Source of the DNA: Bacteroidota bacterium
Lineage (GTDB): Bacteria; Bacteroidota; Bacteroidia; Bacteroidales; JACABE01
Direction of reading: 5' to 3'
DNA: 58,299 bases
NCBI GenBank assembly: GCA_037134755.1
Contig: JBAXLO010000001.1
Span: 1-58,299, forward strand
Shown here: positions 12,458 to 58,299 of the stretch, in pieces
How the letters are laid out: each line of letters opens with the position of its first letter
How positions within the stretch are numbered: the first letter of the stretch is position 1
Program-made: the position numbers and the translations under genes
Notes under the pieces: generated by a model
Told to the model about the DNA's origin: nothing
Database searches by the model: none
Seen by the model: only the letters and a program-made list of their open reading frames with translations

Positions 12458-12634
12458 TTTTTTATTAATTTCTATACAAAAGTACTATTCTTTAGTTATA
12501 AAAGGGTTCTTTTTGTAATATAATATTAAAAAAAATAAAATTAGTCATTAGTTTTAGATAAAAATCCAGACATATTAAGTTAAAGCATATATTATCAATA
12601 ATAAAGTACTTTAAGTAAGGCTGAAAACCTTGTA

Positions 12635-12844
12635 TAATGCAAATGTAAAGTAGGAGGTTTTGCTCAAATGTTGGTGTAATACAAATGTAAAGTAGGAGGT
12701 TTTGAGCCGAAACTGGTGTAATGCAAATGTAAATTTTGAGTGCAAAGGTAAAAGCTGGCTTAATACAAATGTAAAATTTAGGTGCAGATGTAAAAGTTGA
12801 TATAATGCAAATGTAAAATAAGAGTTTTTGAATCCGAGGAAAGC
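12635..12844. repeat. tandem array, 5 x 42 bp (TAATRCAAATGTAAA...)
   Basis: Unit starts at 12635, 12677, 12719, 12761 and 12803 are spaced exactly 42 bp apart. Each unit contains an internal half-repeat (TGCAAATGTAAA / TGCAAAGGTAAA). Confidence 0.9.
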
Positions 12845-14307: not shown

Positions 14308-15399
14308 ATGGAATTACTATATATTGATTTAATAACAAAAAATATTCAATGTGAATCTGAATATTATTATTTCATTGTAAACTATATAATAGGCAAAAAA
14401 ATTTCCTTACATTCAAATATAGGATTTTATAATTTCATTAATAAAAATAAAAAAAGAATTAGTTTATCTGATTTCATTAAATATTATGAAAGTTATTGTA
14501 TTTATTTTCATAAAGATAATAAAGAAGAACTTGATGTTGTCTTTAGCTATTGTGATGATTTTAAAATTTTTAATAAAGATTACAAAGCCTATTCAAAGAA
14601 GAAGAATTTAACAAAAGAACAATTAGTATTTATGAATTGCCATAATACTAACTACAATATGATAAAAGAAAAATTAATTGATATTTGCAAAAATAATATG
14701 ACATCATTAAATCTAATGGCCTATTCTGATTTAATAAATGATGATATAATTGAAACAAGTTTTTCATTATTCAAAAGAAATGGAAAAATTGATGATATTG
14801 AATTGAGTGAAATTATTTTTAATAATTTTTTATCAAAAGAAAAATTAGTTATAGCAGGAAGTTTCTATGAAAAAGTTATTGATTCTATGAATAAATATAA
14901 AGAAGAAAATGAGATAGAAGGAGAAAAATCTAATAAAATATTTTTGCCAGATTTACCATTATTGAAATTCCCTATATCAAGTGAAATATCAAAAGAGCAT
15001 TTGCAATTAATTAGATTACAATTTAATTCACAGATTACCATTTTGTTTGATAAAATACAAAACTATAGAATTAATGAATTGCAACATGAAATTAATGAAA
15101 CACTTGCAGAAAAATTATCTGTGTTTTACAAAACATTACATGAGGATATAGAAATTATTCAAAATAAAATAGATGAAAATATATTTTTTCAAAAAATAAT
15201 AAACTCAGATTCTATATATAAAACAGTAATAGTAAATTTGGGTATAGTTCCTTATTTTACTCTGGTATGTTTGTATTTTTCTCTAAAAGCAATTACTATA
15301 GAAAAATTTTTAGAATTAAGAAATAGATGTAATTACGAACTCGGAACTTTTACAGGTGATTTTTTTCTTTATTATGAAATAGAACCTAAAATAAATTAA
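14308..15399 (+). CDS. MELLYID-family paralogue 1 (hypothetical, no recognisable domain)
   Basis: 363 aa. Starts MELLYIDLITK..SEYYYFIVNYIIGKK and ends FFLYYEIEPKIN. Clear paralogy to the next four ORFs. Confidence 0.75.
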   Translation: MELLYIDLITKNIQCESEYYYFIVNYIIGKKISLHSNIGFYNFINKNKKRISLSDFIKYYESYCIYFHKDNKEELDVVFSYCDDFKIFNKDYKAYSKKKNLTKEQLVFMNCHNTNYNMIKEKLIDICKNNMTSLNLMAYSDLINDDIIETSFSLFKRNGKIDDIELSEIIFNNFLSKEKLVIAGSFYEKVIDSMNKYKEENEIEGEKSNKIFLPDLPLLKFPISSEISKEHLQLIRLQFNSQITILFDKIQNYRINELQHEINETLAEKLSVFYKTLHEDIEIIQNKIDENIFFQKIINSDSIYKTVIVNLGIVPYFTLVCLYFSLKAITIEKFLELRNRCNYELGTFTGDFFLYYEIEPKIN

Positions 15400-15483
15400 G
15401 AAGAAAATGAAATTGAATAAAGTTAGAAATATGAATGGATTTATTAAAAATACATTAATAATTAAAAACTAATTATTACAATT

Positions 15484-16593
15484 ATGGAATTGCTATATAT
15501 AGATTATATGAAAACGCAAAATCAATTTGATTCTGAATATTATTATTTTATTATAAATTATTTAATTGGTGAAAAGATTCAAATGCATTCTAACTTTGGA
15601 TTTTATATGCATGTTGTTAAAAATATTAATAAGTTAAGCAAATATGAACTTGTAGATTATCTTGAAAATTATATGATTCAAAGCACTTTACATACTCCTT
15701 GCGATTTAAAAGATTTTTTTGCTACAAAAGATATGTATAGTAGAACTAATAAGCTAGTTACAAAAATTTTAAAGCACGGTAAAATGCCAAAGATAGACTT
15801 TGAAATAGTGAAATCCTTTAACGATTTAATAGCAACAAATAAATCTGAATTACTAAGAATATGTAATGAATTATTAGAAAAGCAACATTTATTGCCTTAT
15901 GTTGATTTACTTGATAATGATATTTTAAAGACTTCTTTTTCTTTATATAATCGTGATGTAACTATAAAAGAAAAGGAAATTGGGGAAATTATATATAATA
16001 ACTTTAAAAGAAAAGATAGGCTTTTAGTTTTGGGAAGCATGATTGGTATGCAAATGGACTTGTTTTTAGTTGAAGATGGAATTGGGACCTCAAAAAATGA
16101 AGAAGACTTAGTAACTGTTGGATCTTCATGTTTATTAACAATTCCATGCTCAAAAAAATTAACAAAGGATAATCTTATTTTTATTAGAAAGCAATTCCAT
16201 GCAAAATTTGATTCTTTATTTGCCAAAATATATGATTTCCGATCAAAATTTCTTAAAAAAGAGTTAGATGATGACCTAATGATAGAATTTAATAATTTTA
16301 CTTCAGAAATAGAAAATGAATTGGAAATATTACAACTTGAAATAGACAACCATATCTATTTTCAGAAAATTAAAAATTCAGATCCTGATTATGTAAATAT
16401 AAGTATCAATTTGGGAGTTCTACCAATTGATTTAATTTTTATGGTTTATGTTACGTCAAATGTAATTTCATTTGATAAATACTTAGAATTAAGTATTAGA
16501 GAATATAATGAAATAGGTAAAGGTATGGGAGATATTTATCTTTATTATGAAATTGAACCAAAAATAAACGAAGAAGAAAATACAGAAGAATAA
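15484..16593 (+). CDS. MELLYID-family paralogue 2
   Basis: 369 aa. Contains MELLYIDYMK..SEYYYFIINYLIGEK, IPCS, QKIKNSDPDYVNISINLGVL and IYLYYEIEPKIN. Confidence 0.75.
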   Translation: MELLYIDYMKTQNQFDSEYYYFIINYLIGEKIQMHSNFGFYMHVVKNINKLSKYELVDYLENYMIQSTLHTPCDLKDFFATKDMYSRTNKLVTKILKHGKMPKIDFEIVKSFNDLIATNKSELLRICNELLEKQHLLPYVDLLDNDILKTSFSLYNRDVTIKEKEIGEIIYNNFKRKDRLLVLGSMIGMQMDLFLVEDGIGTSKNEEDLVTVGSSCLLTIPCSKKLTKDNLIFIRKQFHAKFDSLFAKIYDFRSKFLKKELDDDLMIEFNNFTSEIENELEILQLEIDNHIYFQKIKNSDPDYVNISINLGVLPIDLIFMVYVTSNVISFDKYLELSIREYNEIGKGMGDIYLYYEIEPKINEEENTEE

Positions 16594-16693
16594 AATTTTT
16601 AATTGCTTTTTAAATACACACATAAATTGTGTAAATACTTATTTATAAATTTTATTAGTTCAGATATTCATTAAAATAATTAATATTTAAGTT

Positions 16694-17800
16694 ATGGAAT
16701 TATTGTATATAAACGATGTTAAAGATGATAAACAACTTGATGAAGAGGTTTTTTACTTTATTGTTAATTACATTATAAGTGAAAATGTAACGATACATTC
16801 AAATGTTGGGTTTGGCTTAGAAATGTTTAAAAAGATTGATTGTTTTTCTGATGATGAAGTAATGAAGTATTTAGAAAGTTATTTTTTTATAATACAGCCC
16901 CAAATTACATCACGTTTATCTGAAGAACTTAAAAAAATTGATGGATTGAAGGAGTGTATGAAAACCTACAAACAATTAAAACATCGGAATCAATTACCTC
17001 CAGGACATTTCAAATATCTTCAGACATTAAAAACAAGGTATTTAGATTATCGGAAAACCTTCAAGGGGTTTTTGAATGATTATGTACGATTTTTGGGAAT
17101 ATATAAATATGTAGATTTATATGACGAAGTTATAATAAAAGCAAGCTATACCGACATTAATAGAGATTGGGAATTAATCGACCAGGAGCTTGGGGAAATA
17201 TTATATAACAATATTTCAAACCGAAAAAATCTAATATTACTTCATGATCTATCAAATTTAGAGGAATTTGACGCAAATAAAGAAGTTGATGAAGAACAAA
17301 AAGCCTTGCTTATCGAATTGTTTACATTGCATAAAATTCTATTAGTAACTATTCCATGTTCCGTTAATTTACAATTAAACGAACTAGTAGTTTTGAGACA
17401 AAGGTTTTTAAACAATTTTACTGAATTATTCTCAAGAATACAATTTTTTAGAAAAGATATTAATAAAATTGACACAGTTGAAACGTTAACAGAAAAATTA
17501 AATGAATTTAAATCTGAAATTAAAGATGATTTACAAAAAATACAAAACGAAATAAATACAAATCTATACTTCCTGAAAATTAAAAATTCAGATTCAGATT
17601 ACACAAATGTTACTATTAATCTTGGTATATTATTTAATGTAACTATATTTAATTATTTCTCTGTGAGAAATTTGATATCGCCTGATAAATATTCAGAATT
17701 AGAATATAGGTTAAATAATAAATTAAATGAAAAGTATTATGATTTATTTATATACTATAAAATTGACTTAGATATAAATAAATATAAAATTAGCGAATAA
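16694..17800 (+). CDS. MELLYID-family paralogue 3
   Basis: 368 aa. Contains MELLYINDVK, IPCS, LKIKNSDSDYTNVTINLGIL and LFIYYKIDLDIN. Confidence 0.75.
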   Translation: MELLYINDVKDDKQLDEEVFYFIVNYIISENVTIHSNVGFGLEMFKKIDCFSDDEVMKYLESYFFIIQPQITSRLSEELKKIDGLKECMKTYKQLKHRNQLPPGHFKYLQTLKTRYLDYRKTFKGFLNDYVRFLGIYKYVDLYDEVIIKASYTDINRDWELIDQELGEILYNNISNRKNLILLHDLSNLEEFDANKEVDEEQKALLIELFTLHKILLVTIPCSVNLQLNELVVLRQRFLNNFTELFSRIQFFRKDINKIDTVETLTEKLNEFKSEIKDDLQKIQNEINTNLYFLKIKNSDSDYTNVTINLGILFNVTIFNYFSVRNLISPDKYSELEYRLNNKLNEKYYDLFIYYKIDLDINKYKISE

Positions 17801-17822
17801 TAATTAAAAAACACATATAATT

Positions 17823-18908
17823 ATGGAATTGCTATATGTAGATAATATTACTAAAGAGTTTCAATATGAGAACGAATACTATTATTTTGTATTTAATTAT
17901 ATAATTGGAAAAAGAGTTCATTTGCATTCTAATGTGAGTTTTTGCTTTCATGTTATTAAAAATATAAGTAAATTTAAAGAGAATGAGATTCTGGATTTAT
18001 ATGAGATTAACAGCTTCCACAAAAATGTTGAAGAAGGTAGAGATTTGGAGGAGGTAACAAAAGGATATGAGCTTATTAAAAAACAATCTCCATTTGTAAA
18101 ACAACTAAAGAAACAAAAAAGATTAAATAAAGAAAGATTTGGCTTAGTACAAACATTTAATCAAGTTTTAACTTCAAGTAGAGATATTTTAAGAGAGTCA
18201 TGTAAAGATGACTTAGAAGCTATGGATTTATTGCCTTATATTGATTTAATTGATGAAGGTGTTATTATAACAAGTTATTCAACCTATAATAAAGTAGGAA
18301 AGATTGATGATTGTGAAATTGGAGAGAAATTGTTACAAACATATATTAATAGAGATAAAATATTAGTTTTAGGTAGTATATTGCCTATTTTGGCTAAACC
18401 AATATTACCAGAAGATATAAAAAGAATTCCTCCTTTGTTTTCAAGGAAAGTTTGTTTAGTAGGTATTCCACTTGTTTATATTCCTTGTTCAATAGGTTTT
18501 AAAAAAGACTCTCTTGTTTTATTACGTAAACAATTTATGAGTAAGTTTGATAAATTATTGGAGAAAATTCAATCTTTTAGGATTGAAATAAATACGTTGA
18601 CATTTAACAAAGAGATTAAAAATAAGATACTAGCATTTCAGGAATTATTAAATCAGGATTTAACGATGCTTCAAGATGAAATTAATACTAATATTTATTT
18701 CCAAAATGTAATTAATTGTGGAAAAGAGTATAATAATGTGTTTTTAATACTAGGCATACTTCAAAATGAATATATAGGTTTGTTTCATATAAGTAATTAC
18801 GCATTAAGTAAAGAAAAACATTTGGAATCAAATGAAGTAATAAAAAATAAAATTGGGAAAAACAAAAGTGAAGTCTTTCTCTATTATAATATAGAACAGA
18901 ATAGATAG
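17823..18908 (+). CDS. MELLYID-family paralogue 4
   Basis: 361 aa. Contains MELLYVDNITK..NEYYYFVFNYIIGKR, IPCS and VFLYYNIEQNR. Confidence 0.75.
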   Translation: MELLYVDNITKEFQYENEYYYFVFNYIIGKRVHLHSNVSFCFHVIKNISKFKENEILDLYEINSFHKNVEEGRDLEEVTKGYELIKKQSPFVKQLKKQKRLNKERFGLVQTFNQVLTSSRDILRESCKDDLEAMDLLPYIDLIDEGVIITSYSTYNKVGKIDDCEIGEKLLQTYINRDKILVLGSILPILAKPILPEDIKRIPPLFSRKVCLVGIPLVYIPCSIGFKKDSLVLLRKQFMSKFDKLLEKIQSFRIEINTLTFNKEIKNKILAFQELLNQDLTMLQDEINTNIYFQNVINCGKEYNNVFLILGILQNEYIGLFHISNYALSKEKHLESNEVIKNKIGKNKSEVFLYYNIEQNR

Positions 18909-18926
18909 ATTAATAATCTTAATAAT

Positions 18927-20042
18927 ATGAATTTAACTTTTATAAATAGAACAACTTCCAAAATATTACCAATGTCTGAGAACATTTATTTTTATTGTTC
19001 TTATATTATTGCTGATACGTCTTCTTATCATGCAGTGTTTTCGATGATGGAAGATTTTAGTGACTTGAAAATAGAAAGTAATAATGAAGAGTTTATTTTG
19101 GAGCTTTATCTTTTATTTAATAAAGATAATATTAATTGCGATGTGCTTAGGAGTGAAGCTAATATTTTGTTTTCTTGGTGTCAGAAACATAAGAGTGTAA
19201 ATCATAAGACAAAAGAGATGATTATTAATTATCAAAGAAAAAATCTTTTACTTAGAAAGATGTTGAATTTTATAGTAGATTTCTATCAAAACATGACAAG
19301 TAGTTTTGGGTTTGCAAAAGATCAATTAGGATTAATAGATGGGAAGATTGCTTCTTGTATTAGAAATATTTATGAAAGTGAAGATTATTTAGATGAACAT
19401 ACAGAAGATTCTTTAATAACATTGATTCCAGAATACTTATTTAGAAAAGAGAACTATTTTGTAATAGAAACTCTTATAGAGGATATTCTTAAGCCTTTTT
19501 ATATAAAAGATCCTGACCATTCAATTAATATTATGAATGAAAATGAATTTGTATGTATGCCATTATTTAAGATACCTTATTTTAGATTCTTTAACTCGAA
19601 TAGTTTGGTGTCGATAAGGAATACTTTAAAATCGAGTATGGGTGTTCTTTCAGATATTATTAATGATTTCCAAGATAATCTTAAAGAATTTGATTTTGAT
19701 AATAATGCAATAGATGTTATAAATAGTTATGTGCCGAAAGTACAATTAATATCTACTAATATACAGGAGCAAATAGACACTCAAGTTTATATTAAGAAAG
19801 AAATGAATTCAGGTTCAATGTTTCTTAATATGCAAATATATCTTGGTATATGTAAAATCAAATCAATACCTGAGTATTTTAGTGAAGCCGAAATAATAAA
19901 GCCTTTTATAATTGATTCAATTAATAAAAATATAGAAATAAAAGGTAATTTAAATAAAAGTCAGGTGTTCATTTATATGAAACCTGAGGAACAATCAATA
20001 CATGAATTCTTAGTATCTTATAAAAATAATTTAACATGTTAA
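18927..20042 (+). CDS. MELLYID-family paralogue 5, divergent member
   Basis: 371 aa. The N-terminus has diverged (MNLTFINRTTSK..ENIYFYCSYIIAD), but the family blocks are retained: LFKIPYF, LVSIRNTL, QVYIKKEMNSGSMFLNMQIYLGI, VFIYMKPEE. Confidence 0.7.
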   Translation: MNLTFINRTTSKILPMSENIYFYCSYIIADTSSYHAVFSMMEDFSDLKIESNNEEFILELYLLFNKDNINCDVLRSEANILFSWCQKHKSVNHKTKEMIINYQRKNLLLRKMLNFIVDFYQNMTSSFGFAKDQLGLIDGKIASCIRNIYESEDYLDEHTEDSLITLIPEYLFRKENYFVIETLIEDILKPFYIKDPDHSINIMNENEFVCMPLFKIPYFRFFNSNSLVSIRNTLKSSMGVLSDIINDFQDNLKEFDFDNNAIDVINSYVPKVQLISTNIQEQIDTQVYIKKEMNSGSMFLNMQIYLGICKIKSIPEYFSEAEIIKPFIIDSINKNIEIKGNLNKSQVFIYMKPEEQSIHEFLVSYKNNLTC

Positions 20043-26309: not shown

Positions 26310-26689
26310 AATATTTAATTGTATTGATAAATGATAAATTAATTATGAAGCAAAATTAAACCTTAATTACCAGCTAAAATTTTAATTATGTCTTATTATT
26401 AATAATAATCTAAACTCGTCTGTTTATAAGCTATTTAAATATTAAAATACTTAATATAGGTTTTGATAAAAATAAGACTAATAAGCAATACTTTTATTGC
26501 TTTTATTATCATTATAATAATAATAAATATATTGATGAAATGCAATATTAATGTATTGATAATAAGTTGTTATGATATGATTTGCTTTAGTTGATGCATG
26601 CTATCAAATACAGCTGATTTAAGGCTTTGTAAATGCACCATAATCCCTATTAAATATGCCCTTACATCCATTATTTAATTATTTGTTTC

Positions 26690-27019
26690 GTTTATAGTAT
26701 TATTTGTTTCAATTATACTCTTATTATTTTTGTTTATAATGCTCTTTGTTTTATTTATTTAATAATTTGTTTTGTTTATACTATTCTCTTTTTCGTTTAT
26801 GCTAACCTCTCTTTTGTTTATAGTCTTATTTGTTTTGTTTATATTCCTTTTTGTTTCATTTATAACGCTCTTTGTTTTAATTATACTTTTATAATCAAAA
26901 CAAATATTATTTAGATCAAAACAGATAATCTTTAAATCAAATATATTATTACAAAAAAGAAATAAGATAAAAGTAGGATTAAAACATAAAAGAAGATTAT
27001 TAAAACACTTAATTTTACT
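26690..27019. repeat. two abutting tandem arrays with 21-bp period (about 10 + 6 units)
   Basis: GTTTATA-type unit starts fall at 26690, 26711, 26732, 26753, 26774, 26795, 26816, 26837, 26858 and 26879. ATCAAAA/ATTAAAA-type units then start at 26894, 26915, 26936, 26957, 26978 and 26999. Confidence 0.9.
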
Positions 27020-41998: not shown

Positions 41999-42190
41999 AA
42001 TAAGATTCATTTTAAATAAGACAACAAAGATACTACTTATTTCTTAATTCAATACATTATTTTAATATTAATCACTTTCATGAAAAAGATAAGAGGCTAA
42101 GCAGTAGCACTAGTTAAAGAGATGTTGAAAATAAATGCTAACAAAGTGAAAATAAATGAAAATAAAAGAACTTAGGTCTTAAAAAATGCT

Positions 42191-42900
42191 TATATTTGCA
42201 ATCAAATTATGGTATAACAATTTTCAAACGTTTTATGGGCTTTATCTAATATAAAAATAATGACAACTTCAGCTACTTATGTAAGAAATATTCTTAAAAG
42301 TTGCATAGAATTAAAACTCCGTGGTGTCATTACTAAGCCAATATCCAAAACAAATTTCGTTAAGAATACTAAAAAACTCCGTTTAGAAGGTCTAATCATA
42401 CCAAATGGCAGTTTAGAGCTAGACTATGACTTCATAGAGTTCGACCGTGACTTCATAGACCTAGACAATGATTGTCTAGACCTAAACCGTGACTGCCTAG
42501 ACCTAGACAATGGCTTCATAGACCTAGACAATGACTTTATAGGTCTAGACAATGACTTTATAAGTCTAGACAATGACTTCATAGATCTAGACAATGACTT
42601 TATAAGCCTAGACAATGATTTCATAGAGCTAGACAATGGCAGTCTAGGCTTAAACCGCTTTTTGGCATTCCTAAGATCTATCATTTTGGTAACGTTCTGT
42701 TATTTGCTTAAATACAAACAAAATAAAATTAAACCATTTTTTAAAATTAAGTACTCGATTTATAATGTTACAGGATTTCATTTTAATTTAGACTTTATTA
42801 ATTTTCATATATTAAGGCAACTTTTTATCATATTTAAGTTGTTGTTTAATCAAAAGCATCAATATTGGTACGAATCGAATTATTTTTCATAGTGTAGATA
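42191..42900 (+). other. conserved-flank tandem-repeat element A (promoter-like box, 5' box, 21-bp array, 3' box); nature unresolved (long leader, ncRNA, small repeat protein or DNA-level element)
   Basis: TATATTTG at 42191-42198. The 5' box at 42303-42345 and the 3' box at 42746-42808 are both shared with element B at 52.5 kb. The track ORF 42260..42892 runs through the whole element. Confidence 0.6.
42398..42649. repeat. tandem array, about 12 x 21 bp (CTAGACAATGACTTCATAGAC)
   Basis: Units start at 42419, 42440, 42461 and so on to 42629, with exact 21-bp spacing. A degenerate unit lies at each end. Confidence 0.95.
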
Positions 42901-42962
42901 TTTAAACTGATAAAATATATACCCTTTAAAAATCATATTTATAATTATTTATATAATACACA

Positions 42963-43571
42963 ATGAAAAATTCGAAAATTAGATTAGATTTTGCTCAATT
43001 ATGTTGGCAATTTCTTATTCCCTTTGCAATGAGTGTGTCGGGATTATTTTATTTACTAACATTTGTATTGGTTCCACCATGCACTAAAATTGAATTAGAT
43101 GCAGCAATTCATGATTTACTTACAAAAGGCGTAGCTTCATTGACTCCCGGTTTAGGAAAAGTTAACTTAAGAGAGGATGCTTATAAAATTGTTGTAAATT
43201 ATCTACGTCAATTGGCCCATTTTGCAGAAATGGAATATGAAGGTGATGGAAAAAAATTACTTTTAACAGGTTTTAATATTTATTCACCTGAATCCGGCTC
43301 AGTCCCTATAATATTTAATGTTATACAGGGAACATTTTCAGGACAGGTTATTGCTAACTGGCCTTTCGACCAAAATAATCATGGCTACGTACTTAGATAT
43401 TCTATTAATGAAGTTGGCTTGAGAGATGTTTACACTGAAGTAAATGCAGGTACAACAGGTTGGACTCTAGAAGGTTTGACACCTTTAAAAGAATATATGT
43501 TCTCTTATTGTGTGGTTTATTCAACTTACAAAGGTACTTTTTGTGATCCTGTTTTCTTAACAGTTATCTAA
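42963..43571 (+). CDS. hypothetical protein: short helical N-part + fibronectin-III-like C-terminal domain (possible truncated member of the orphan family)
   Basis: 202-aa ORF. The C-terminus FSGQVIANWPFDQNNHGYVLRYS......GWTLEGLTPLKEYMFSYCVVYS is FN3-like. It is followed by two hairpins, including the shared terminator. Confidence 0.6.
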   Translation: MKNSKIRLDFAQLCWQFLIPFAMSVSGLFYLLTFVLVPPCTKIELDAAIHDLLTKGVASLTPGLGKVNLREDAYKIVVNYLRQLAHFAEMEYEGDGKKLLLTGFNIYSPESGSVPIIFNVIQGTFSGQVIANWPFDQNNHGYVLRYSINEVGLRDVYTEVNAGTTGWTLEGLTPLKEYMFSYCVVYSTYKGTFCDPVFLTVI

Positions 43572-43872: not shown

Positions 43873-46800
43873 ATGAGAAAGATATATCTTTTTATTTTAC
43901 TAAATCTACTTTTTGTTATTACAACAAAAGCACAAGTAGTAATCAATGAAGTTCAATCAGCAAATGCAAATACCATTGCTGATGAAAGTGGATCCTATTC
44001 TGATTGGATCGAATTGTATAATACCAGTACCACAACCTCTGTAAACCTTTTAGGTTATGGTTTAACTGATGGTAGTAACCTCTTTAAGTGGGTATTCCCA
44101 AGTATTGATCTGCCTCACGAACAACATTTAGTAGTATTTGCTTCAGGAACTCCTAACTATACTTATATGACCCATTGGGAAACTGCCGTAAACGCTAATG
44201 ATTCCTGGTTGTTTAAAGTTGCAAATGCCAGCATTCCTTCCACATGGAGTACTTCATCTTATTTACCGGATACTTCATGGAAACAAAAAAAAGGACCCTT
44301 TGGTATTGGGTATTCAGCTGATTCAACAACTGTGCCTCAATGTAAAACTTTTTATATTAGAAGAACTTTCAATGTTTCAGCAACTGCTTATGCTGATATT
44401 TTAAAAGTTGCTCTTTCTATTGATTGGAATGATGGTTTTGTAGCGTACTTAAATGGAAACGAAATTGCAAGAGCTAATGTTCTGGGAAATCCACCAAGTT
44501 ACGATACTTCAGCTACTACTAGTAACACTCCTGCATATCTTACCGGAGATCCTCCAACAAATTATATATTTGATATTGCATCAAGCTTCTTGGTATCCGG
44601 GGATAATATTTTAGCAATTGAAGTTCATAATATAAGTGCAACTAATCCTTCATTGTTTGTAATGCCTTACTTGTCAGTTGGTATTCATGATTTTCAATCT
44701 TTTTATAATCCCACACCAACATCCTTTGGTTTGCAAAATGTTTATCTTCACACTAATTTCAAAATTAATGATAATGAAACGATCTCATTAACCAGCCCAG
44801 GAGCAACACCTACTACAGATTCTCAAAATATTGGCTTTGTTTATGCTGATGCGTCTATTGCGCGTATCCCAGATGGAGGAGATTGGTGTTATACTTCAAC
44901 AGCAACACCTATGTTGCCTAATGTTGGTCCTTGTGGGCAGGGGTTTACTGCACAACCTCAGGCTTCAGTACCTGCCGGCTTCTATACTACTACTCTTCAT
45001 GATTCTCTTAAATGTTCGTCAGCAAATACAGCAATACATTATACTTTAAATGGAAACATACCAAAGATTACTGATAAACTTTATACAGGTCCAATTACTA
45101 TTGATAGTACTGTAGTGTTAAGAGCAAGAGCATTTTCTACAGTTCCAAATGGACTACTCCCTGGGCAACCTTTTACAGCAACCTATTTATTAAATCAACC
45201 TGCAACTACTTGTCCAATTGTTTCTTTAAGTTTAGATTCAATGTCGTTATGGGATTGGAATACGGGGATATATGTACTAGGTCCTAATGCAAGCCCTAAC
45301 AGACCTTTCTGGGGTGCTAATTTCTGGCAAAACTGGAATAGACCCGGACATGTTGAATATTTTACTTCTACAGATAGTTTAAAGTTCAGTATGGATGCTT
45401 TTCTTGGTATGAATGGTAATTATTCAAGAGATAAAGATCAAAAAAGCTTTGCGATAACTACAAGATCATCACTTGATACCAACTCTATTAATTATCAAAT
45501 ATTCCCAGATAAAAACATAACTGATTTTAAAAGATTCGTTGTGCGTAATGCAGGTTCTGATAATCTAATATGTCATTTTAGAGATGAATGTCTTCAAACA
45601 ATGTTTAAATCCTCTTATAATGATTGGGAAGCAAACAGACCTTGCGATGTATATTTAAATGGTAAGTATTGGGGTGTTTATCATCTTCACGAAAAGAGTG
45701 ATAAGTATTATCTAGCCGAAAACTATGGTGTAAATCCTGACAGTGTCGATTTAATAAAGAATTTTGCAGCACAGGATGGTAATATGAATGCATTCACAAT
45801 CATGCAAAACTACTTAGGAAACACTAGCTTAGATTTATCAACAACAGCTAATTATACAACAGCTCAAAGTTATTGGGATATGGATAATCTAAAGGATTAT
45901 TATATTGGTGAGATATTTGTTGAAAACCAAGATTGGATAACAAAACAATGGACTGCTATTTCACCTGCACATTTTGAATATTGGGTAAATAATATTAAGT
46001 TATGGAGGCCACAGCAAACTAATGCTAAATGGAGATTTAATTTGCACGATATAGATCAGGGAGGGTTTCCAGCTAATATTTTGGCAATAAATTATAATCA
46101 TACAAACGTAAATTTTCTATCATTGGCAATTAGTCCTGGAAGTGTTATCAACAATAATCTTTATTCAGTAATATTAAGGAATTTCTTAAAGAATGCTGAC
46201 TTTAAAAATAAGTTTATCAACCGATATGCAGATCTTTTAAATACCGTCCTATTAACAAATAGAACTTTAATAGTAGCTGATACATTTGTAAATAGGCTTT
46301 CACCTGAAATACAAAGAGAAATAAATAGGTGGGGACTATCTGATCCAACTTCCAGATGTCATAATATCACTGAATGGAATACAAATATTTCAGACTTTAA
46401 AACATTCCTAACTCAGCGTCCTGATTCAGCTCGAAAGGAAATACTATCATATTTTAATTTATCAGGTAATGTTACAATAACTATAGATGTTGCTAATAAA
46501 TCTCAAGGGAAAGTGCAAATTAGTACATTAACTCCTGATACTGCTACTTTACCATGGCATGGAATATATTTTAATGGGAATAATGTACCTATAACACCAA
46601 TACCAAATCCGGGATATGTATTTGACTATTGGGAAGCAAATCACTCTTTTTCTGTTAATAACTATACAGGATTTCATTTTATGAATTTCACACAAAGTGA
46701 CACCATGAGAGCACATTTTAAAGCAGCACCAACAATTACTATATCCGAAATAAATTATCATTCAGACCCTACTCGTGATACAAAAGACTGGATTGAATTA

Positions 46801-47970
46801 CATAATTATGGAACTACAGCTATGAATGTAACTGGATGGAAAATATTTAAACCCGCAACCGGTGATTCTTATACTTTTCCTAGTAGTACTATTATTTCAG
46901 CGAATGGTTATATGGTCTTTTGTGAAGACACTGATTATTTCGCAACTACTTATTTACCTACCGTCATCACAAATAAAAAAGGTCCTATGAATTTTGGATT
47001 TAATGATAACGGTGAAGAAATACAAATACAAAACTCTCAAGGTGGGATAATTCTAGATTTTACATACAAATCTGATTCTACATGGCCGGGTTGTGCAGCT
47101 GGTTATGGACGTACATTAGAGCTACAAAGTAACACTCTTTTTATAAACGATCCAGCTAATTGGGCTTGTGGTTGTATGTTAGGTTCTCCTGGAGTTGCTC
47201 ATTCTCCATGTACAGAAGCAGTTTTATTTAATGAAATTAATTACAATTCTTCCGCTAACTATCCTATGAATGACTGGGTAGAATTGCATAACAGGAGTAA
47301 TACAGCTATTGATGTATCTAATTGGGTTTTTAAAGATGGTGTTGATACACATTCGTTCATTATCCCAAAAAGAATTGCTAATGGAAGTACTATTCCTCCT
47401 TATGGTTATCTAGTTTTGGTTAAAGATACAGTAAGTTTTAATACTGTATGGCCTGGTATTACTAATAGATTTGGTGATTTAGGTTTTGGTTTATCATCAA
47501 GTGGAGATGTTCTCAGACTTTATAATTCAACAGGTAAGATTTATCAGTCTTTATTATATAGTCCTGAATGGGGTGCAAATGGAGATGGAACAACTTTAGA
47601 GTTTAATAACAGTCTTACAGATGCAAATCCTAATATGAGTATTGGTTGGTTTCCAGGTTGTATAAAAGGCTCACCGGGATATCCTTTTGCACCCAATTGT
47701 GATGCTGGAATAAAAGAATATACTAGTGAAACTTATAAGGTTTATCCTAATCCTGCTACAAATGATGTGAATATTGAATTGAATACTGTACATAATGATG
47801 ATATTTATTTTCAATTATACGATTTAGAAGGTCGTATGTTAAATGAAGTATCGATGAAAGGTAAAACAAAGATTACTGTAAGTAGAAATGGTTTACAAAG
47901 TGGTATTTATATATACAGAATAAGTACTAATAATTCAGTTGAGGGTGCGGGTAAGCTGATTTTTGAATAA
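43873..47970 (+). CDS. T9SS-secreted lamin-tail-domain (x3) / CotH kinase-family protein, copy 1
   Basis: 1365 aa. LTD signature VINEVQSAN...SDWIELYNTS..VNLLGYGLTD. CHB_HEX_C-like HYTLNGNIPKITDKLYTGPITIDSTVVLRARAF. CotH core FVVRNAGSDN..CHFRDE...YLNGKYWGVYHLHEKSDKYYLAENYG. Two further LTDs. CTD is VYPNPATNDVNIEL...GIYIYRI. Confidence 0.85.
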   Translation: MRKIYLFILLNLLFVITTKAQVVINEVQSANANTIADESGSYSDWIELYNTSTTTSVNLLGYGLTDGSNLFKWVFPSIDLPHEQHLVVFASGTPNYTYMTHWETAVNANDSWLFKVANASIPSTWSTSSYLPDTSWKQKKGPFGIGYSADSTTVPQCKTFYIRRTFNVSATAYADILKVALSIDWNDGFVAYLNGNEIARANVLGNPPSYDTSATTSNTPAYLTGDPPTNYIFDIASSFLVSGDNILAIEVHNISATNPSLFVMPYLSVGIHDFQSFYNPTPTSFGLQNVYLHTNFKINDNETISLTSPGATPTTDSQNIGFVYADASIARIPDGGDWCYTSTATPMLPNVGPCGQGFTAQPQASVPAGFYTTTLHDSLKCSSANTAIHYTLNGNIPKITDKLYTGPITIDSTVVLRARAFSTVPNGLLPGQPFTATYLLNQPATTCPIVSLSLDSMSLWDWNTGIYVLGPNASPNRPFWGANFWQNWNRPGHVEYFTSTDSLKFSMDAFLGMNGNYSRDKDQKSFAITTRSSLDTNSINYQIFPDKNITDFKRFVVRNAGSDNLICHFRDECLQTMFKSSYNDWEANRPCDVYLNGKYWGVYHLHEKSDKYYLAENYGVNPDSVDLIKNFAAQDGNMNAFTIMQNYLGNTSLDLSTTANYTTAQSYWDMDNLKDYYIGEIFVENQDWITKQWTAISPAHFEYWVNNIKLWRPQQTNAKWRFNLHDIDQGGFPANILAINYNHTNVNFLSLAISPGSVINNNLYSVILRNFLKNADFKNKFINRYADLLNTVLLTNRTLIVADTFVNRLSPEIQREINRWGLSDPTSRCHNITEWNTNISDFKTFLTQRPDSARKEILSYFNLSGNVTITIDVANKSQGKVQISTLTPDTATLPWHGIYFNGNNVPITPIPNPGYVFDYWEANHSFSVNNYTGFHFMNFTQSDTMRAHFKAAPTITISEINYHSDPTRDTKDWIELHNYGTTAMNVTGWKIFKPATGDSYTFPSSTIISANGYMVFCEDTDYFATTYLPTVITNKKGPMNFGFNDNGEEIQIQNSQGGIILDFTYKSDSTWPGCAAGYGRTLELQSNTLFINDPANWACGCMLGSPGVAHSPCTEAVLFNEINYNSSANYPMNDWVELHNRSNTAIDVSNWVFKDGVDTHSFIIPKRIANGSTIPPYGYLVLVKDTVSFNTVWPGITNRFGDLGFGLSSSGDVLRLYNSTGKIYQSLLYSPEWGANGDGTTLEFNNSLTDANPNMSIGWFPGCIKGSPGYPFAPNCDAGIKEYTSETYKVYPNPATNDVNIELNTVHNDDIYFQLYDLEGRMLNEVSMKGKTKITVSRNGLQSGIYIYRISTNNSVEGAGKLIFE

Positions 47971-48209: not shown

Positions 48210-51200
48210 ATGAGAAAGATTTTTCTTTTTATTCTTATTAATCTTCTTTTAGGTTTAACAACGAAAGCACAGGTTGTTTTAAATGAGATTCAGGCAGAAA
48301 ACGCCACTACTATTTATAATGACGTAGATAGTTCGAATTCTGATTGGATTGAACTATATAACAAAGGAACAGCCTCTGTCAATTTATTAGGTTATGGTTT
48401 GTCGGATAATACTACACTTTATAAATGGGTGTTTCCAAGTATTGACCTACCATCACATAAACACCTATTAGTATTTGCTTCAGGTGATAATATTACTACT
48501 TATATGAATCATTGGGAAATAGGTGTTAGTGCTAATGATACTTGGACTTATAAAGTGGCAACTTCCAGCACACCTACAACCTGGAATACTTCCTCTTATT
48601 TACCCGATACTTCGTGGAAACAGAAGATTGGTCCTATTGGTCATGGATATTCAGCTGATTCAACCACAATTCCTCAATGTAATACTTTATATATGAGGAG
48701 GACTTTTAATGTAACAGCTTCTTCAATCGCTGATATGATGAAAGCTGCACTAGTTATTGATTATGATGATGGTTTTGTTGCTTATTTAAATGGCTACGAA
48801 ATCGCAAGAGCTAACATTACAGGAACTCCTACTTACAATTTAGCTGCTGATGGTACCCATGTGCCTGCATATATGACGGGAGACCTCACTCCAAATTTTA
48901 TGTTAGATAGTGCTACTTTCTTTAGTCATTTGTTACCGGGAGATAATATTTTGGCAATTGAAGTCCACAATGTAAGTACTACAGATCCTACATTGTTTGC
49001 AATGCCATATCTAGCATTTGGCATCCATGATTTTCAAACGTTCTTTAGTCCTGTTCCATCTTGGTTTTATCTTCAAAATAAGTATCTTCATACAAATTTT
49101 AAAATTAACGATAACGAAACAATTTCTTTAACTCCTCCAGGTACTTCTGCTGCCTCTGATTTTATTAATATTGGGTATCTTTATACTGATGCTTCCATTG
49201 CACGTATTCCTGATGGAAATAATATTGGCGGTGTTTATCAAGGCTGGTGTTATACTGAAAGTCCTTCTCCAAATTTACCAAATCCTATGGCTGGTTGTGG
49301 CATGGGGTTTACTGCTAAGCCTCAATCTTCAGTGCCTGCCGGATTTTATACCACTGCAATACATGATAGTCTTAAATGCTCATCACCTAATACTGTAATA
49401 TATTACACATTGAACGGGAATATGCCTAAGGCAACTGATAAATTATATACTGGACCTATTACTATTGATAGTACAACAGTTTTAAGAGCACGTGCTTTTT
49501 CAACAGGAATTGGGACACTACTTCCCGGACAAACGTTTACAGCTACTTATTTTATTAATGAACCTTCAACAATTCCAATAGTTTCTTTAAGTACTGATTC
49601 GATGTCATTATGGGATTGGAATACCGGTATATATGTAATGGGACCTCATGCTGACAGTATAAATCCTCCAAACTATGGAGCTAACTTCTGGCAAAACTGG
49701 AATAAAGAAGCACATGCAGAGTATTTTTTAAGACCTTCAGATAATAATATATTTAGTTTGGATGCATTTATTTCAATCAACGGAAACTGGTCCAGAGCTT
49801 ATGATCAAAAGAGTTTTGGTGTTGAAACTAAATCTTCATTAGATACTAATACTATTAATTATCAACTCTTCCCTAATAAAAACATTACTAATTTTCAAAG
49901 GTTTGTTGTTCGTGATGCAGGTACTGATAATCTTTTCTGTCATTTCAGAGATGAACTGCTTCAAAAGATGTTTTCGAATACTAATGTTGGATGGGAAGCT
50001 TCTCGCCCATGCAATTTGTTTTTAAATGGTAAGTATTGGGGTTTATATCATCTACTCGAAAAGAGTGATAAATATTATCTTGCAGAAAATTATGGTGTAA
50101 ATCCAGATAGTGTCGATTTAATAAAGATTTTTGCTGTTCAGGATGGTAATAATAATGCCTATAATAGTTTAGTATCTACTTTTACTAACATAAGTGACTT
50201 TTCAACAAGTGCTAATTATGCCATTTTTAAAAGCCTTTGGAATATGGATAATTTTATGGATTATTATATTGATGAGATTTGTATTGAGAATATGGACTGG
50301 ATTTCTAAAAGATATTATAGTAATATTCCAGGGTATTTATATTGGGTAACAAATGTGAAACTTTGGAGAGAACAGAAACCAAACGCTATATGGAGATATG
50401 AAATGCATGATGTAGATCAGGGAGCTAAACCTTTTAGTATGATAAATGGAGGTGGTCCCGATCATATTAATTTCCTATCTCAAGCAATTAGTCCAGGGGG
50501 GAACATTAACAATAATATATATTCAGTTATGTTAAGGAAGTTAATGCAGAATTCTGATTTTAAAAACAAGTTTATAAACCGTTATGCAGATATATTAAAT
50601 ACTACCTTTTTACCAAGTCGTACTTTGCCAATTGCAGACTCTTTAAAAAATATAATGGAACCTGAAATGCAAAGAGAAATAACAAGATGGGCAACATCTT
50701 CTTCCTTATCAAGAAATATGACTGAATGGCACAGTAATGTTACTAACTTTAGAACATTCTTATCTCAACGTCCCGATTCTGCAAGAGTTGAAATTCTTTC
50801 TTATTTTAACTTATTGGGAAATGTTAATATCACTGTTGATGTTGCTAATAAAGCTCAAGGAAAAGTTCAGATAAGTACTCTAACTCCAGATACTGCTATC
50901 TTACCTTGGCACGGTATTTATTTTAATGGTAATAATGTGCCTATAACACCTGTACCAAATCCAGGATATGTATTTGATTATTGGGAGGCAAATCATTCTT
51001 TTTCATCAAATAATTATACCGGTTATCATTTTATGAATTTTACTCAAAGTGATACTATGAGAGCTCATTTTAAAGTAGCACCATCAATAACTATTTCTGA
51101 ATTGAATTATCATTCAGATCCTACTCGCGACACTAAGGATTGGATCGAATTACATAACTATGGTACAACAGCAATGAACATCACCGGTTGGGAAATATAT

Positions 51201-52343
51201 AAACCTGCTACGGGTGATACTTATACTATCCCAAGTGGAACAGTTATTACAGCAAACGGTTACATGGTCTTTTGTGAAGATACTGATTATTTTGCAACAT
51301 CTTATCCTAACACAATCACCAATAAAAGAGGGCCGATGAACTTTGGTTTTAATGATTACGGAGAAGAAATTCAAATACAAAATGCTCAGGGCGGTATTAT
51401 TTTAGATCTTACCTATAGTTCTGATTCTACTATTTGGCCAGGTTGTGCAGCAGGGTATGGTCGTACTTTGGAATTGCAAAGCAATACTCTTTTTATAAAT
51501 GATCCTTCTAATTGGGCATGTGGTTGTATGTTAGGTTCACCCGGAGCTGCTCATTCACCTTGTACAGAAACTGTTTTATTTAATGAAATTAATTATAATT
51601 CTTCAACTACTTATCCTATGAATGATTGGGTAGAATTACATAATAAAAGTAATACTGCTATAGATGTGTCAAATTGGGTACTTAAAGATGGTGTAGATAC
51701 CCATTCATTTGTAATCCCTAAAAGAATTGCAAATGGAAGTACTATTCCTCCAAATGGTTATTTAGTTATTGTACGAGATACAACTAGTTTTAATGCAGTA
51801 TGGTCTGGGATTACTAATAGATTGGGCAATTTAAGTTTTGGCTATTCTTCAAGTGGAGATGCTATCAGACTATATAATTCAACAGGTAAAATATATCAAT
51901 CAATGGTATATAAGTCCGAATGGGGAGCTAATGGAAATGGTGCAACATTAGAGTACAATCATAGTATTTCGGATGCAAATCCAAATTTAAGTACTGGATG
52001 GTTTGAAGGATGTTTAGGAGGTTCTCCGGGATATGCACATATCGTACCTTGTCCCACAGTAGGCTCAATGACAACAGGTATAAAAGAATTTTCAAACAAC
52101 GAAAACTATAGGGTTTATCCTAATCCTGCAACAAATGATGTGAATATTGAATTGAATACTGTACATAATGATGATATTTATTTTCAATTATACGATTTAG
52201 AAGGTCGTATATTAAATGAAGTATCGATGAAAGGTAAAACAAGGATCACAATAAGTAGAAATGGTATACAAAGTGGTATCTATATATTTAGGATAATAAC
52301 AAATCAATCAGTAACCGGTGCCGGTAAATTGATATTTGAATAG
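48210..52343 (+). CDS. T9SS-secreted lamin-tail-domain / CotH kinase-family protein, copy 2 (tandem paralogue)
   Basis: 1377 aa, collinear with copy 1 over its full length, with the same domain order. Confidence 0.85.
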   Translation: MRKIFLFILINLLLGLTTKAQVVLNEIQAENATTIYNDVDSSNSDWIELYNKGTASVNLLGYGLSDNTTLYKWVFPSIDLPSHKHLLVFASGDNITTYMNHWEIGVSANDTWTYKVATSSTPTTWNTSSYLPDTSWKQKIGPIGHGYSADSTTIPQCNTLYMRRTFNVTASSIADMMKAALVIDYDDGFVAYLNGYEIARANITGTPTYNLAADGTHVPAYMTGDLTPNFMLDSATFFSHLLPGDNILAIEVHNVSTTDPTLFAMPYLAFGIHDFQTFFSPVPSWFYLQNKYLHTNFKINDNETISLTPPGTSAASDFINIGYLYTDASIARIPDGNNIGGVYQGWCYTESPSPNLPNPMAGCGMGFTAKPQSSVPAGFYTTAIHDSLKCSSPNTVIYYTLNGNMPKATDKLYTGPITIDSTTVLRARAFSTGIGTLLPGQTFTATYFINEPSTIPIVSLSTDSMSLWDWNTGIYVMGPHADSINPPNYGANFWQNWNKEAHAEYFLRPSDNNIFSLDAFISINGNWSRAYDQKSFGVETKSSLDTNTINYQLFPNKNITNFQRFVVRDAGTDNLFCHFRDELLQKMFSNTNVGWEASRPCNLFLNGKYWGLYHLLEKSDKYYLAENYGVNPDSVDLIKIFAVQDGNNNAYNSLVSTFTNISDFSTSANYAIFKSLWNMDNFMDYYIDEICIENMDWISKRYYSNIPGYLYWVTNVKLWREQKPNAIWRYEMHDVDQGAKPFSMINGGGPDHINFLSQAISPGGNINNNIYSVMLRKLMQNSDFKNKFINRYADILNTTFLPSRTLPIADSLKNIMEPEMQREITRWATSSSLSRNMTEWHSNVTNFRTFLSQRPDSARVEILSYFNLLGNVNITVDVANKAQGKVQISTLTPDTAILPWHGIYFNGNNVPITPVPNPGYVFDYWEANHSFSSNNYTGYHFMNFTQSDTMRAHFKVAPSITISELNYHSDPTRDTKDWIELHNYGTTAMNITGWEIYKPATGDTYTIPSGTVITANGYMVFCEDTDYFATSYPNTITNKRGPMNFGFNDYGEEIQIQNAQGGIILDLTYSSDSTIWPGCAAGYGRTLELQSNTLFINDPSNWACGCMLGSPGAAHSPCTETVLFNEINYNSSTTYPMNDWVELHNKSNTAIDVSNWVLKDGVDTHSFVIPKRIANGSTIPPNGYLVIVRDTTSFNAVWSGITNRLGNLSFGYSSSGDAIRLYNSTGKIYQSMVYKSEWGANGNGATLEYNHSISDANPNLSTGWFEGCLGGSPGYAHIVPCPTVGSMTTGIKEFSNNENYRVYPNPATNDVNIELNTVHNDDIYFQLYDLEGRILNEVSMKGKTRITISRNGIQSGIYIFRIITNQSVTGAGKLIFE

Positions 52344-52387
52344 ATAAGCATTTAAAGATATTTCATTCTTTCTTGAAGTATATTATA

Positions 52388-52419
52388 ATAGCCTTCACCA
52401 TTAATTTGGTGAAGGCTAT
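52388..52419 (+). terminator. rho-independent terminator after CotH copy 2
   Basis: ATAGCCTTCACC-ATTAATTT-GGTGAAGGCTAT is a 12-bp perfect stem followed by a T-rich tract. Confidence 0.7.
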
Positions 52420-52590
52420 TTATATTTAAGTCCACAAATAGTTGAATTATCATAGAAAATAAATTCCATTTATCTATTGACTTTCTTTCAATATAATTTA
52501 AAAATACGCATAGAAATAAAACTCCAAGGTGTCATCAATAAGCAAATATCTCATTCAAAACCATTCAAAATCCTTAAAAAGCTGCTTGAG

Positions 52591-52653
52591 GCAGGTGCAA
52601 CGCTGCATTCGGTAAATGCAACGCTGCACTTGTCGAATACAAGGCTGCATTCG
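52591..52653. repeat. tandem array, 3 x 21 bp (GCAGGTGCAACGCTGCATTCG)
   Basis: Units at 52591, 52612 and 52633, with degenerate flanking units. Confidence 0.85.
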
Positions 52654-52824
52654 TTCCTTGTGGGTTTGTTCTTGATTTTATCAAAAATTAGACTTATAAA
52701 TACACATCAAGTCATTAATATTAAATACTTTATTTGTAATGTCAAAGGATTGCATTTTAATTTAGCCTTTATCAATTACCATAAACTCATGGTTTAAATG
52801 AATACTAGAATCGTTGTTATAAAT

Positions 52825-52860
52825 AAAAGAGGCTGTCTCAGATTTGAGACAGCCTCTTTT
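52825..52860. terminator. bidirectional terminator hairpin
   Basis: AAAAGAGGCTGTCTC-AGATTT-GAGACAGCCTCTTTT lies downstream of both element B (+) and 52887..53681 (-). Confidence 0.8.
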
Positions 52861-52886
52861 ATTTATAAGAGAAAATAATTTAAATA

Positions 52887-53883: not shown

Positions 53884-53967
53884 TAACGAAGTGTTCAACC
53901 GATAGTACAGAGTTGTTAACATGTTGTACGAAGTTGTCAACATGTTGTACAGAGTTGTCAGGAAGCA
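53884..53967. repeat. tandem array, 4 x 21 bp (GTACAGAGTTGTCAACATGTT), bracketed by a 9-bp inverted repeat
   Basis: Units at 53884 (degenerate), 53905, 53926 and 53947. TTTTCTGCT (53871-53879) and AGCAGAAAA (53964-53972) bracket the array. Confidence 0.85.
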
Positions 53968-58177: not shown

Positions 58178-58299
58178 TCGCAGTCACGAAGCAAACTGTC
58201 GCAGTCACGAAGCAAACTGTCGCAGTCACGAAGCAAACTGTCGTAGTCACGAAGCAAACTGTCGCAGTCACGAAGCAAACTGTCGTAGTCACGAAGCAA
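58178..58299. repeat. tandem array, at least 5.8 x 21 bp (TCGCAGTCACGAAGCAAACTG), running off the window end
   Basis: Units at 58178, 58199, 58220, 58241, 58262 and 58283. The only variation is C/T at one position (TCGCAG vs TCGTAG). Confidence 0.95.

Follow-up and report, generated by a model that had tools for sequence, protein, structure and literature searches.

Bacterial genes for variable envelope proteins, such as Vlp and Vsa of Mycoplasma and the alpha C protein of streptococci, are generally known to carry in-frame variable-number tandem repeats (VNTRs) between conserved flanks, and other loci, exemplified by pilE/pilS of Neisseria and vlsE of Borrelia, diversify by silent-cassette conversion. 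Direct repeats of about 21 bp occur as iteron arrays in plasmid and phage origins, and upstream open reading frames (ORFs) act as leader or arrest peptides in SecM-secA, MifM-yidC2 and TnaC. Element A, the subject of the present analysis, bears some likeness to each of these. It lies in a stretch of 58,299 nucleotides (the window), which is a portion of the metagenome contig ERZ4224321 NODE_536 (63.8 kb; ENA) from a low-GC (~31%) Bacteroidota. An original prediction made from the DNA letters had described a promoter-like box, two conserved boxes enclosing a repeat array and an orphan-family gene behind them, and had left undecided whether the whole represents a repeat-protein gene, a structured RNA or a DNA-level regulatory cassette. 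The first of these is favoured here, structured RNA in the boxes finds no support, and the idea of a nucleic-acid element applies to the array only. Element A is probably a translated small gene (42260-42892) of a lineage-restricted family, forming part of a two-gene cassette with a hypervariable heptad array.

Eight loci, labelled A to H, make up the DNA compared: A (window 42260-42892), B (window 52477-52797; also on L011 and L014), and C (L012), D (L015), E (L017), F (L018, the same as L020), G (L019) and H (L021). The ORF of element A, on the plus strand, encodes 210 amino acids that divide into an N-terminal region, a heptad array, a hydrophobic segment and a conserved C-terminal domain; the 210-codon open frame of the original prediction is real, and the identical ORF is called on five contigs. 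The 5' box (42303-42345, plus strand), corresponding to codons 15-29 (CIELKLRGVITKPIS), is equally conserved at all three codon positions and matches 52508-52550 in element B at 37 of 43 positions, and a 28-mer of this box gave no chance match in 100 shuffles. The 3' box (42746-42808, plus strand) encodes the C-terminal motif (K/N)IKYxIYNVxGxHFNLxFIN(F/Y) and matches 52720-52782 at 52 of 63 positions without gaps, compared with 17.9 +/- 3.8 (maximum 40) for random 63-mers from the window. Both counts had been given in the original prediction and were reproduced upon re-measurement, as were the box-to-box distances of 400 nt in A and 169 nt in B. The difference of 231 nt is necessarily a multiple of three, because A and B are both open in one frame, yet its fit to 11 x 21 is in part coincidental, as had been suspected, since the difference in unit number supplies only ~189 nt.

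Between the boxes, the array (42398-42649, plus strand) encodes heptads of the form I-x-L-D-N-D-F, and in each unit a constant core, ATAGnnCTAGAC, with a TAG/CTA dyad gives way to a half that varies more. Tandem Repeats Finder (TRF) reports a 21-bp period at 42414-42649 with 10.8 copies, as well as periods of 42 and 63 bp; in codon register, the twelve units first claimed resolve into 11 clean ones at 42413-42643 and a degenerate one before them. The array is followed by a hydrophobic segment, FLAFLRSIILVTFCYLL, with a basic linker (42650-42745, plus strand; Kyte-Doolittle mean over 19 residues 1.71), and the 3' box by a tail (42809-42892, plus strand) coding ...LLFNQKHQYWYESNYFS and then the stop codon. 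This tail occurs only in copies with a partner gene behind them and is absent in B and D, both of which lack a partner gene. Upstream of the ORF, the Bacteroidota-type -7 box TATATTTG is present at 42191-42198 (plus strand) as predicted. It lies 62-69 nt 5' of the ATG, and at the same position a perfect box is found in E and F and a box with one mismatch in C and D, consistent with a promoter function. The motif alone is weak evidence, with 134 matches of TAnnTTTG in the window against ~99 expected.

A profile search with the ORFs of A and B yielded 10 further proteins, the word-seeded search counts 11 relatives, and an exhaustive HMMER search of 1.84 billion representatives yielded ~25 small proteins of 126-218 amino acids, with no annotated relative. 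All members have one layout, comprising an N-terminal region (M-x-K-T-P-A-T-V-E-N-x-F-Q-R-x-I-G-x-K-F-x-G-V-x-T-K), a heptad run and a C-terminal domain with the motif (N/K)-I-K-Y-x-I-Y-N-V-K-G-x-H-F-N-L-x-F-I-N-Y, and the tail of most of them ends in K-H-Q-Y-W-x-E-x-(D/N)-Y-F-(S/N)-stop. A hydrophobic segment stands at the post-array position in most members, not all, and is marginal (Kyte-Doolittle 19-residue mean 1.0-2.4), and neither a signal peptide nor a lipobox is visible in the family N-termini. The 210-aa ORF and its counterparts in F and G had no match in Pfam, NCBIfam, PHROG or PADLOC, a sequence-profile search of the PDB with the repeat ORF gave a best E of 0.61, and literature searches on 21-bp repeats in Bacteroidetes, heptad repeats and palindromic repeats with slippage turned up no account of the family. 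An exact-pattern scan for the 3' box found two matches in JGI metagenomes, both from the same organism in Trout Bog Lake, whose metagenomes contain the organism of the window, and none in GTDB species genomes. The source location of two members (P0009 and P0010), which are fragments of NCBI metagenome-assembled genomes (MAGs), was not found. The host LolA is at most ~61% identical to proteins of named MAGs ("Bacteroidetes bacterium", "Bacteroidales bacterium"), and many host proteins carry type IX secretion tails according to Pfam annotations. The repeat-ORF family is lineage-restricted and unannotated, and is known only from metagenomic Bacteroidota.

The strongest indication of translation comes from the C-terminal part of the ORF. 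The alignment of its last 49 codons across A, C, E, F, G and H is gap-free, even for the distant H, and pairwise identity at the three codon positions is 0.74, 0.71 and 0.58; whichever two of A, C, E, F and G are compared, the third position is the least conserved. Variable sites in the C-terminal part of A, C and E are likewise distributed as 5, 12 and 25 over the three codon positions, and the ratio of non-synonymous to synonymous substitution rates (dN/dS, Nei-Gojobori) is mostly 0.15-0.45. Judged by these substitution patterns, the C-terminal part evolves as coding DNA. The earlier claim that second and third codon positions of the 3' box are substituted equally holds for A versus B only, and is reversed when more copies are compared. 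Diverged members keep the initiator Met and the stop at corresponding positions, and start, stop and frame are intact in most of the ~25. Moreover, the C-terminal block of F can be translated only through the array, because no in-frame ATG, GTG or TTG lies between the two.

The second gene of the proposed cassette (42963-43571, plus strand) was correctly described at the outset as belonging to an orphan family, and it turns out to be a conserved partner of the repeat ORF. It encodes 202 amino acids, with a membrane anchor at the N-terminus, then two helices, and an Fn3-fold domain at the C-terminus. Partner genes encoding 199-204 amino acids stand behind the repeat ORF in seven loci (A, C, E, F, G, H and P0030), at a distance of 66-73 nt in six of them and 191 nt in E, while the surrounding neighbourhoods are unrelated: type IX secretion system (T9SS) cargo genes at A, RecR and an aldolase at C, DAP epimerase and a Y1 transposase at F, and LolA at G. 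There is no terminator-like site between ORF and partner gene in A. Only 10 database relatives of the partner were recovered by the word-seeded search, and a protein-pattern scan of species genomes found it in two MAGs only. While its Pfam fn3 match is sub-threshold (13 bits), the AlphaFold2 model (predicted local distance difference test, pLDDT, 75.5) matches many Fn3 domains in Foldseek with E ~1e-5 and a target-normalised template-modelling (TM) score of up to 0.83, and the partner gene product is thus predicted to adopt the Fn3 beta-sandwich fold. Partner genes at the orthologous locus are visibly diverged, and the closest database relatives are 72% and 65% identical.

Comparison of assemblies indicates that the array is hypervariable, as unit number differs between them and one type of unit has been replaced by another at a given locus. 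The comparison of unit numbers that had been proposed gave 3 units for locus B in the window and in L003, 12 in L014 and 13 in L011. Similarly, the variants in the family of C (P0007, P0006 and P0008) have 182, 189 and 196 amino acids and so differ by steps of one heptad, and relative D, whose site is orthologous to that of A, carries an array of 4 units without a partner gene. The 21-bp units preserve the frame and are polymorphic in number, which is the behaviour of an in-frame VNTR as far as the assemblies can be trusted to reflect it. The modular anatomy of the original prediction recurs in the relatives, and in E its parts have been exchanged: the flank and N-terminus are A-like (91% and 99% identity), the segment that begins where the 5' box ends and includes the 3' box is B-like (82-89%), the tail is C-like (83%), and the partner gene is strongly diverged. 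The recombination breakpoint coincides with the 3' end of the 5' box. The mosaic structure of E, with its A flank, B-type array and C-like tail, therefore shows that the boxes bracket a segment exchanged between paralogues. Unit-number change, array swap at a fixed site and a diverged partner at an orthologous locus are all hallmarks of rapid diversification.

Element B (52477-52797, plus strand) is a truncated paralogue of element A. As originally predicted, it has no ATG; its frame opens at TTG 52477. Its 5' box (52508-52550) and 3' box (52720-52782) enclose an array of 2.8 units of GCAACGCTGCATTCGGTAAAT (52596-52653), with a 21-bp TRF period and a unit unlike that of A. A terminator-like hairpin of the upstream CotH gene (52387-52420, plus strand) directly precedes the element and is followed by a -7 box with one mismatch, TATATTTA (52421-52428). 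A perfect hairpin with 24-nt arms (52817-52868, assigned to neither strand), by its form a bidirectional terminator, closes the element. Element B may be either a relic or an array donor, and it may simply be a decaying paralogue.

From these observations, a mechanism can be proposed. Element A would be transcribed from the TAnnTTTG promoter at 42191, and the repeat ORF together with the downstream gene for a membrane anchor plus Fn3 domain would make up the two-gene cassette, in which the 5' and 3' boxes would code for the conserved N- and C-terminal portions. Between them, the 21-bp array would be a heptad spacer, free in number and sequence except for a hydrophobic residue at heptad position 3. 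Hairpin-prone units might drive slippage and turnover, the conserved boxes might serve as homology arms for array exchange between paralogues, and slippage and exchange together would give a locus variable in size and sequence. In A and C, the stop region of the ORF pairs with the partner start in a long-range stem, so that translation of the two is probably coupled there, which suggests coupling in part of the family. We infer, with due caution, that the instability is hairpin-driven and that the products could have a role at the envelope. If this reading is right, the locus represents an unannotated two-gene cassette that is restricted to uncultured freshwater and bog Bacteroidota.

However, a number of observations weigh against a translated repeat-protein gene. 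The N-terminal 36 codons, including the 5' box, show no codon-position signature (identity 0.61, 0.67 and 0.66), and the codon-usage log-odds of the ORF are 0.30 in the N-terminal part, 0.22 in the array and 0.02 in the C-terminal part, against 0.49 +/- 0.15 for the genes of the window and 0.46 for the partner gene. The AlphaFold2 model of the 210-aa ORF is uninformative (pLDDT 35). Element B lacks an ATG, and in H (L021) a stop codon separates the N-terminal-like region from the array. The heptads of different members are unrelated (DNDFIDL, ATLQSTN, GTLLSVK, ETNVVRH, SRLQAKV, RVFFARE, ARKMLSD and others), and within arrays the first 9 nt of the unit are near-invariant, including the wobble sites, while most changes in the remainder are non-synonymous, so that the mode of evolution of the array is that of a nucleic-acid motif and not of a peptide. 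The sampling has to be considered as well. Because most copies come from protein databases, the collection is biased in favour of open frames, and short-read assemblies may collapse repeats, so that copy-number differences are possibly in part artefacts. The 3-unit form of B may itself be an assembly collapse, because a 31-nt stretch is common to units 1 and 11 in L011. With the C-terminal signal on the one side, and the lack of an N-terminal signature, the weak codon usage and the pLDDT of 35 on the other, translation of the whole 210-aa ORF is likely, though not proven.

The array units have an additional property, in that they are dyad-symmetric. The best dyad centre falls between unit nucleotides 5 and 6 in A, B, C, D, E and H, and in the same codon phase in F and G, while the arms differ: TAG/CTA (A), AATGCA/TGCATT (B), AAAGGA/TCCTTT and GGAG/CTCC (C), CCAG/CTGG (D), CGAG/CTCG (F), AAAGTACG/CGTACTTT (G) and GTATC/GATAC (H). 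Base 2 of codon 1 has as its partner the wobble base of codon 3, which is the conserved Leu/Val/Ile codon. A, G and H have T-A at this pair, B and E have C-G, C and F have G-C, and D has T-A as well as C-G. Over 64 distinct units, which are not independent within an array and amount to an effective sample of ~7 arrays, 68.6% of cells are paired, compared with 49.4 +/- 1.7% in shuffles (none of 500 reaches the observed value) and 31-39% for slid partners. One pair alone is U-A in 22 of these units, C-G in 21, G-C in 18 and something else in 3, and the key dyad pair by itself has a permutation probability of ~0.005 by hand calculation. All eight family arrays also fold better than their own column-permuted versions (z -0.9 to -5.4), and array A folds better than dinucleotide shuffles (z -4.3), while the three box-less 21-bp arrays of the window have neither a folding advantage over column permutation nor a dyad signal. 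In a generic palindrome test of single consensus units the signal is weak (P 0.03-0.4 for most), and it becomes clear only in the common codon register.

Since the covariation includes a synonymous site, a nucleic-acid constraint overlies the coding; coding frame and nucleic-acid symmetry would thus be overlapping constraints, both kept through the choice of synonymous sites. The constraint may act on DNA or on RNA, as the better-folding strand differs between arrays and the dyad of A (TAG-nn-CTA) has too little length to form a hairpin in RNA. The strands were also compared for G-U asymmetry, with mixed results that do not separate the two levels. The symmetry might even be a by-product of hairpin-templated mutation together with preferential expansion of hairpin-forming units.

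Together, the heptads and the dyads raise the possibility that the array is dual-coded, with dyad units that are themselves selected and whose complementarity would be kept even through the wobble base of the conserved Leu codon. Hairpins would in this case programme expansion, contraction and box-guided exchange between start-less donors (B-type) and promoter-bearing sites (A-type), or else the dyad units would be sites for a putative regulator. This idea is offered tentatively and is rather doubtful as it stands; if true, it would amount to a pilS/pilE-like diversification of a two-gene envelope cassette in uncultured Bacteroidota.

A regulator could also be the whole explanation. Element A would then be a DNA-level regulatory cassette, in which a putative dimeric protein binds the dyad sites and controls the Fn3 gene, and the frame would stay open incidentally, the repeat length being divisible by three. 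The spacing of 21 bp is two helical turns and would therefore place all sites on one face of the helix. The fixed dyad centre and arm covariation fit this, as do the array core that is invariant even at wobble sites and its variable linker, the N-terminal region with its absent coding signature, poor codon usage and low-confidence model, and the presence of other 21-bp arrays upstream of promoters in this genome. Yet the block between array and partner evolves as coding DNA and in F is accessible to ribosomes only by way of the array, Met and stop are conserved in diverged members, B and D retain array and boxes in the absence of a partner gene to be regulated, no gene for a DNA-binding protein is linked, and the box-less arrays have no symmetry. 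Such a cassette is therefore considered unlikely.

A further alternative takes the ORF as translated and its product as unimportant. Translation through the variable, hairpin-rich array would set the unmasking of the partner start, either as a rheostat or in the manner of an arrest peptide. In its favour is the same long-range stem (42875-42975, plus strand) between the ORF stop region (42875-42896) and the partner ATG region (~42956-42975). In A, the duplex of TTTTTCATAGTGTA with TACACAATGAAAAA has an energy of -16.4 kcal/mol (z -5.7), and in C it is maintained by compensating changes (GTATA/TATAC versus GTGTA/TACAC in A; z -4.2); E has a weak form of the pairing, and F, G and H have none. 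The strong conservation of the residues before the stop (H-x-Y-W-x-x-x-[DN]-Y-F-[SNF]-stop) and the weak constraint on the N-terminal part and the repeats as peptide would also be expected of a leader. However, besides the failure of the pairing in F, G and H, RNAalifold found no conserved structure in the spacer between ORF and partner that could act as a switch, the C-terminal block (~50 residues plus the hydrophobic segment) is longer than the exit tunnel needs, copies of the B and D type persist with no partner gene to regulate, and the spacer has a possible -7-like box of its own. A regulatory leader ORF is accordingly regarded as quite unlikely.

There is far less to be said for a non-coding RNA or long structured leader with the boxes as structural elements. 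The folding advantage of the arrays described above and the two terminator-like hairpins that bracket element B are compatible with such an RNA. Nevertheless, the boxes lend no support to a structured RNA: the 5' region folds with a z-score of +0.16 and the 3' region with one of +1.9, RNAalifold gives -0.76 kcal/mol and no compensatory pairs for six 5' regions, and Rfam has no match at gathering thresholds in the whole window. At E <= 1, Rfam returns within 42000-43000 only three sub-threshold microRNA models, which score 18-20 bits where 54-100 are required and fall on the array's minus strand. The inconsistent strand preference, the short dyad of A and the coding signature of the 3' box argue in the same direction, and the explanation is very improbable.

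Equally improbable is a mobile or selfish repeat, whether a miniature inverted-repeat transposable element (MITE), an insertion sequence (IS) remnant or a cluster akin to repetitive extragenic palindromes and bacterial interspersed mosaic elements (REP/BIME) and serviced by a Y1 transposase: although the cassette is found at different intergenic sites in related genomes, the units are palindromic, and Y1_Tnp ORFs or fragments lie upstream of F and C only, the units run head-to-tail inside a conserved ORF and are not extragenic, only two copies occur in 58 kb, the element ends have no terminal inverted repeats, and no Y1_Tnp homologue is detectable in the window. The search with both boxes by nhmmer that had been suggested found A and B only in the window and, in the related DNA examined, always 5' and 3' boxes in pairs and no solitary box; the paired boxes, the two window copies and the missing terminal inverted repeats argue against a MITE-like repeat.

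Several other features of the window and its relatives were recorded in passing. Element A lies upstream of the first, and element B downstream of the second, of two tandem paralogues of ~1370 aa with LTD, CotH and T9SS-tail domains (43873-47970 and 48210-52343; DNA 73-89% identical). In L011, from a related strain, the position of element A upstream of the first CotH gene is occupied by a 4-unit 21-bp array, CGGAATCGAGTAAGACGTCTT (L011 1279-1362), which has no family boxes and contains the 10-bp palindrome AAGACGTCTT. Upstream of cassette F, a 112-aa Y1_Tnp ORF (IS200/RAYT-like) is accompanied by two fragments (L018 6918-7718, equal to L020 2253-3053), and upstream of cassette C there is a 24-aa Y1_Tnp fragment (L012 9647-9718) beside long hairpins (GGCTTTAGCCCA...TGGGCTAAAGCC).

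Arrays of 21-bp units appear to be recurrent in the intergenic DNA of this lineage. A near-perfect array of TCGCAGTCACGAAGCAAACTG at 58178-58299, which continues in L001 (10755-11130) and L002 (5606-5840), has the LolA terminator on one side and, on the other, a TATATTTG box that precedes a gene for a PAS-domain sensor kinase. Family boxes and a dyad signal are both lacking; the array is cut by the end of the window, where the contig has an N gap, and assemblies differ in its length. At 26671-26941, AT-rich arrays with periods of 21, 42 and 63 bp occupy an unusually long intergenic region (~850 nt) flanked by two divergent genes with CarboxypepD_reg-like domains, and at 53905-53960 a short array of 2.7 copies of GTACAGAGTTGTCAACATGTT, with several palindromes, stands ~190 nt upstream of a gene at 54144. 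The arrays at 26671, 53905 and 58178 were rejected as degenerate family copies, as the nhmmer boxes match A and B only and none has a dyad signal. At 12624-12819, five 42-bp tandem repeats each contain the -7 consensus TACATTTG on the minus strand (12640, 12682, 12724, 12766 and 12808), upstream of a minus-strand gene with no Pfam match (11825-12457), in an arrangement resembling tandem promoter-like boxes. Finally, five tandem paralogues of ~365 aa and very low GC (21-25%) fill 14308-20042, with a 64-nt segment recurring every ~1.1-1.2 kb; a Pfam scan of one of them (14308-15399) and of the preceding 321-aa gene (13257-14222) found no match.

The cassette offers testable hypotheses on tandem-repeat turnover in bacteria and on the gating of a neighbouring gene by a leader-like ORF, and its position among the described systems can be stated as follows. 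The likeness to leader and arrest peptides consists in an upstream ORF with a hydrophobic segment and a conserved C-terminal motif at the stop, and in the pairing of the downstream start with the leader end in A and C. Unlike in those systems, the pairing is not family-wide, the ORF has up to 218 codons including an array, and there are copies that lack the downstream gene. With iteron arrays, the element shares direct repeats of ~21 bp, a spacing of two helical turns and an internal conserved core, but no rep gene, DnaA boxes or AT-rich unwinding element are linked to it, and the array lies in a chromosomal, apparently translated ORF. An iteron-type origin was accordingly rejected, as the spacing fits but no rep-like gene is adjacent in 7 loci.

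The repeat ORF lies outside every described family tested, but in kind it resembles the variable-protein genes with in-frame VNTRs, and it is also reminiscent of systems that exchange cassettes. The features in common with silent-cassette conversion are a promoter-bearing A, a start-less, truncated B that has only a -7 box with one mismatch, the mosaic E with its A flank, B array and C tail, and the conserved flanks; the differences are that there is one candidate donor, that exchange is deduced from different strains and not within a lineage, and that neither a G4-type nor any other initiator is known for the cassette. From the in-frame VNTR genes for envelope proteins, the family is set apart by the lack of a signal peptide or lipobox and of sequence homology, by its tiny size and poorly gene-like codon usage, by dyad covariation at a synonymous site and by its fixed partner gene. 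What it shares with them is a set of in-frame repeats between conserved flanks, a unit number that varies between strains, several paralogues per genome, and units that are homogenised within a gene and divergent between genes.

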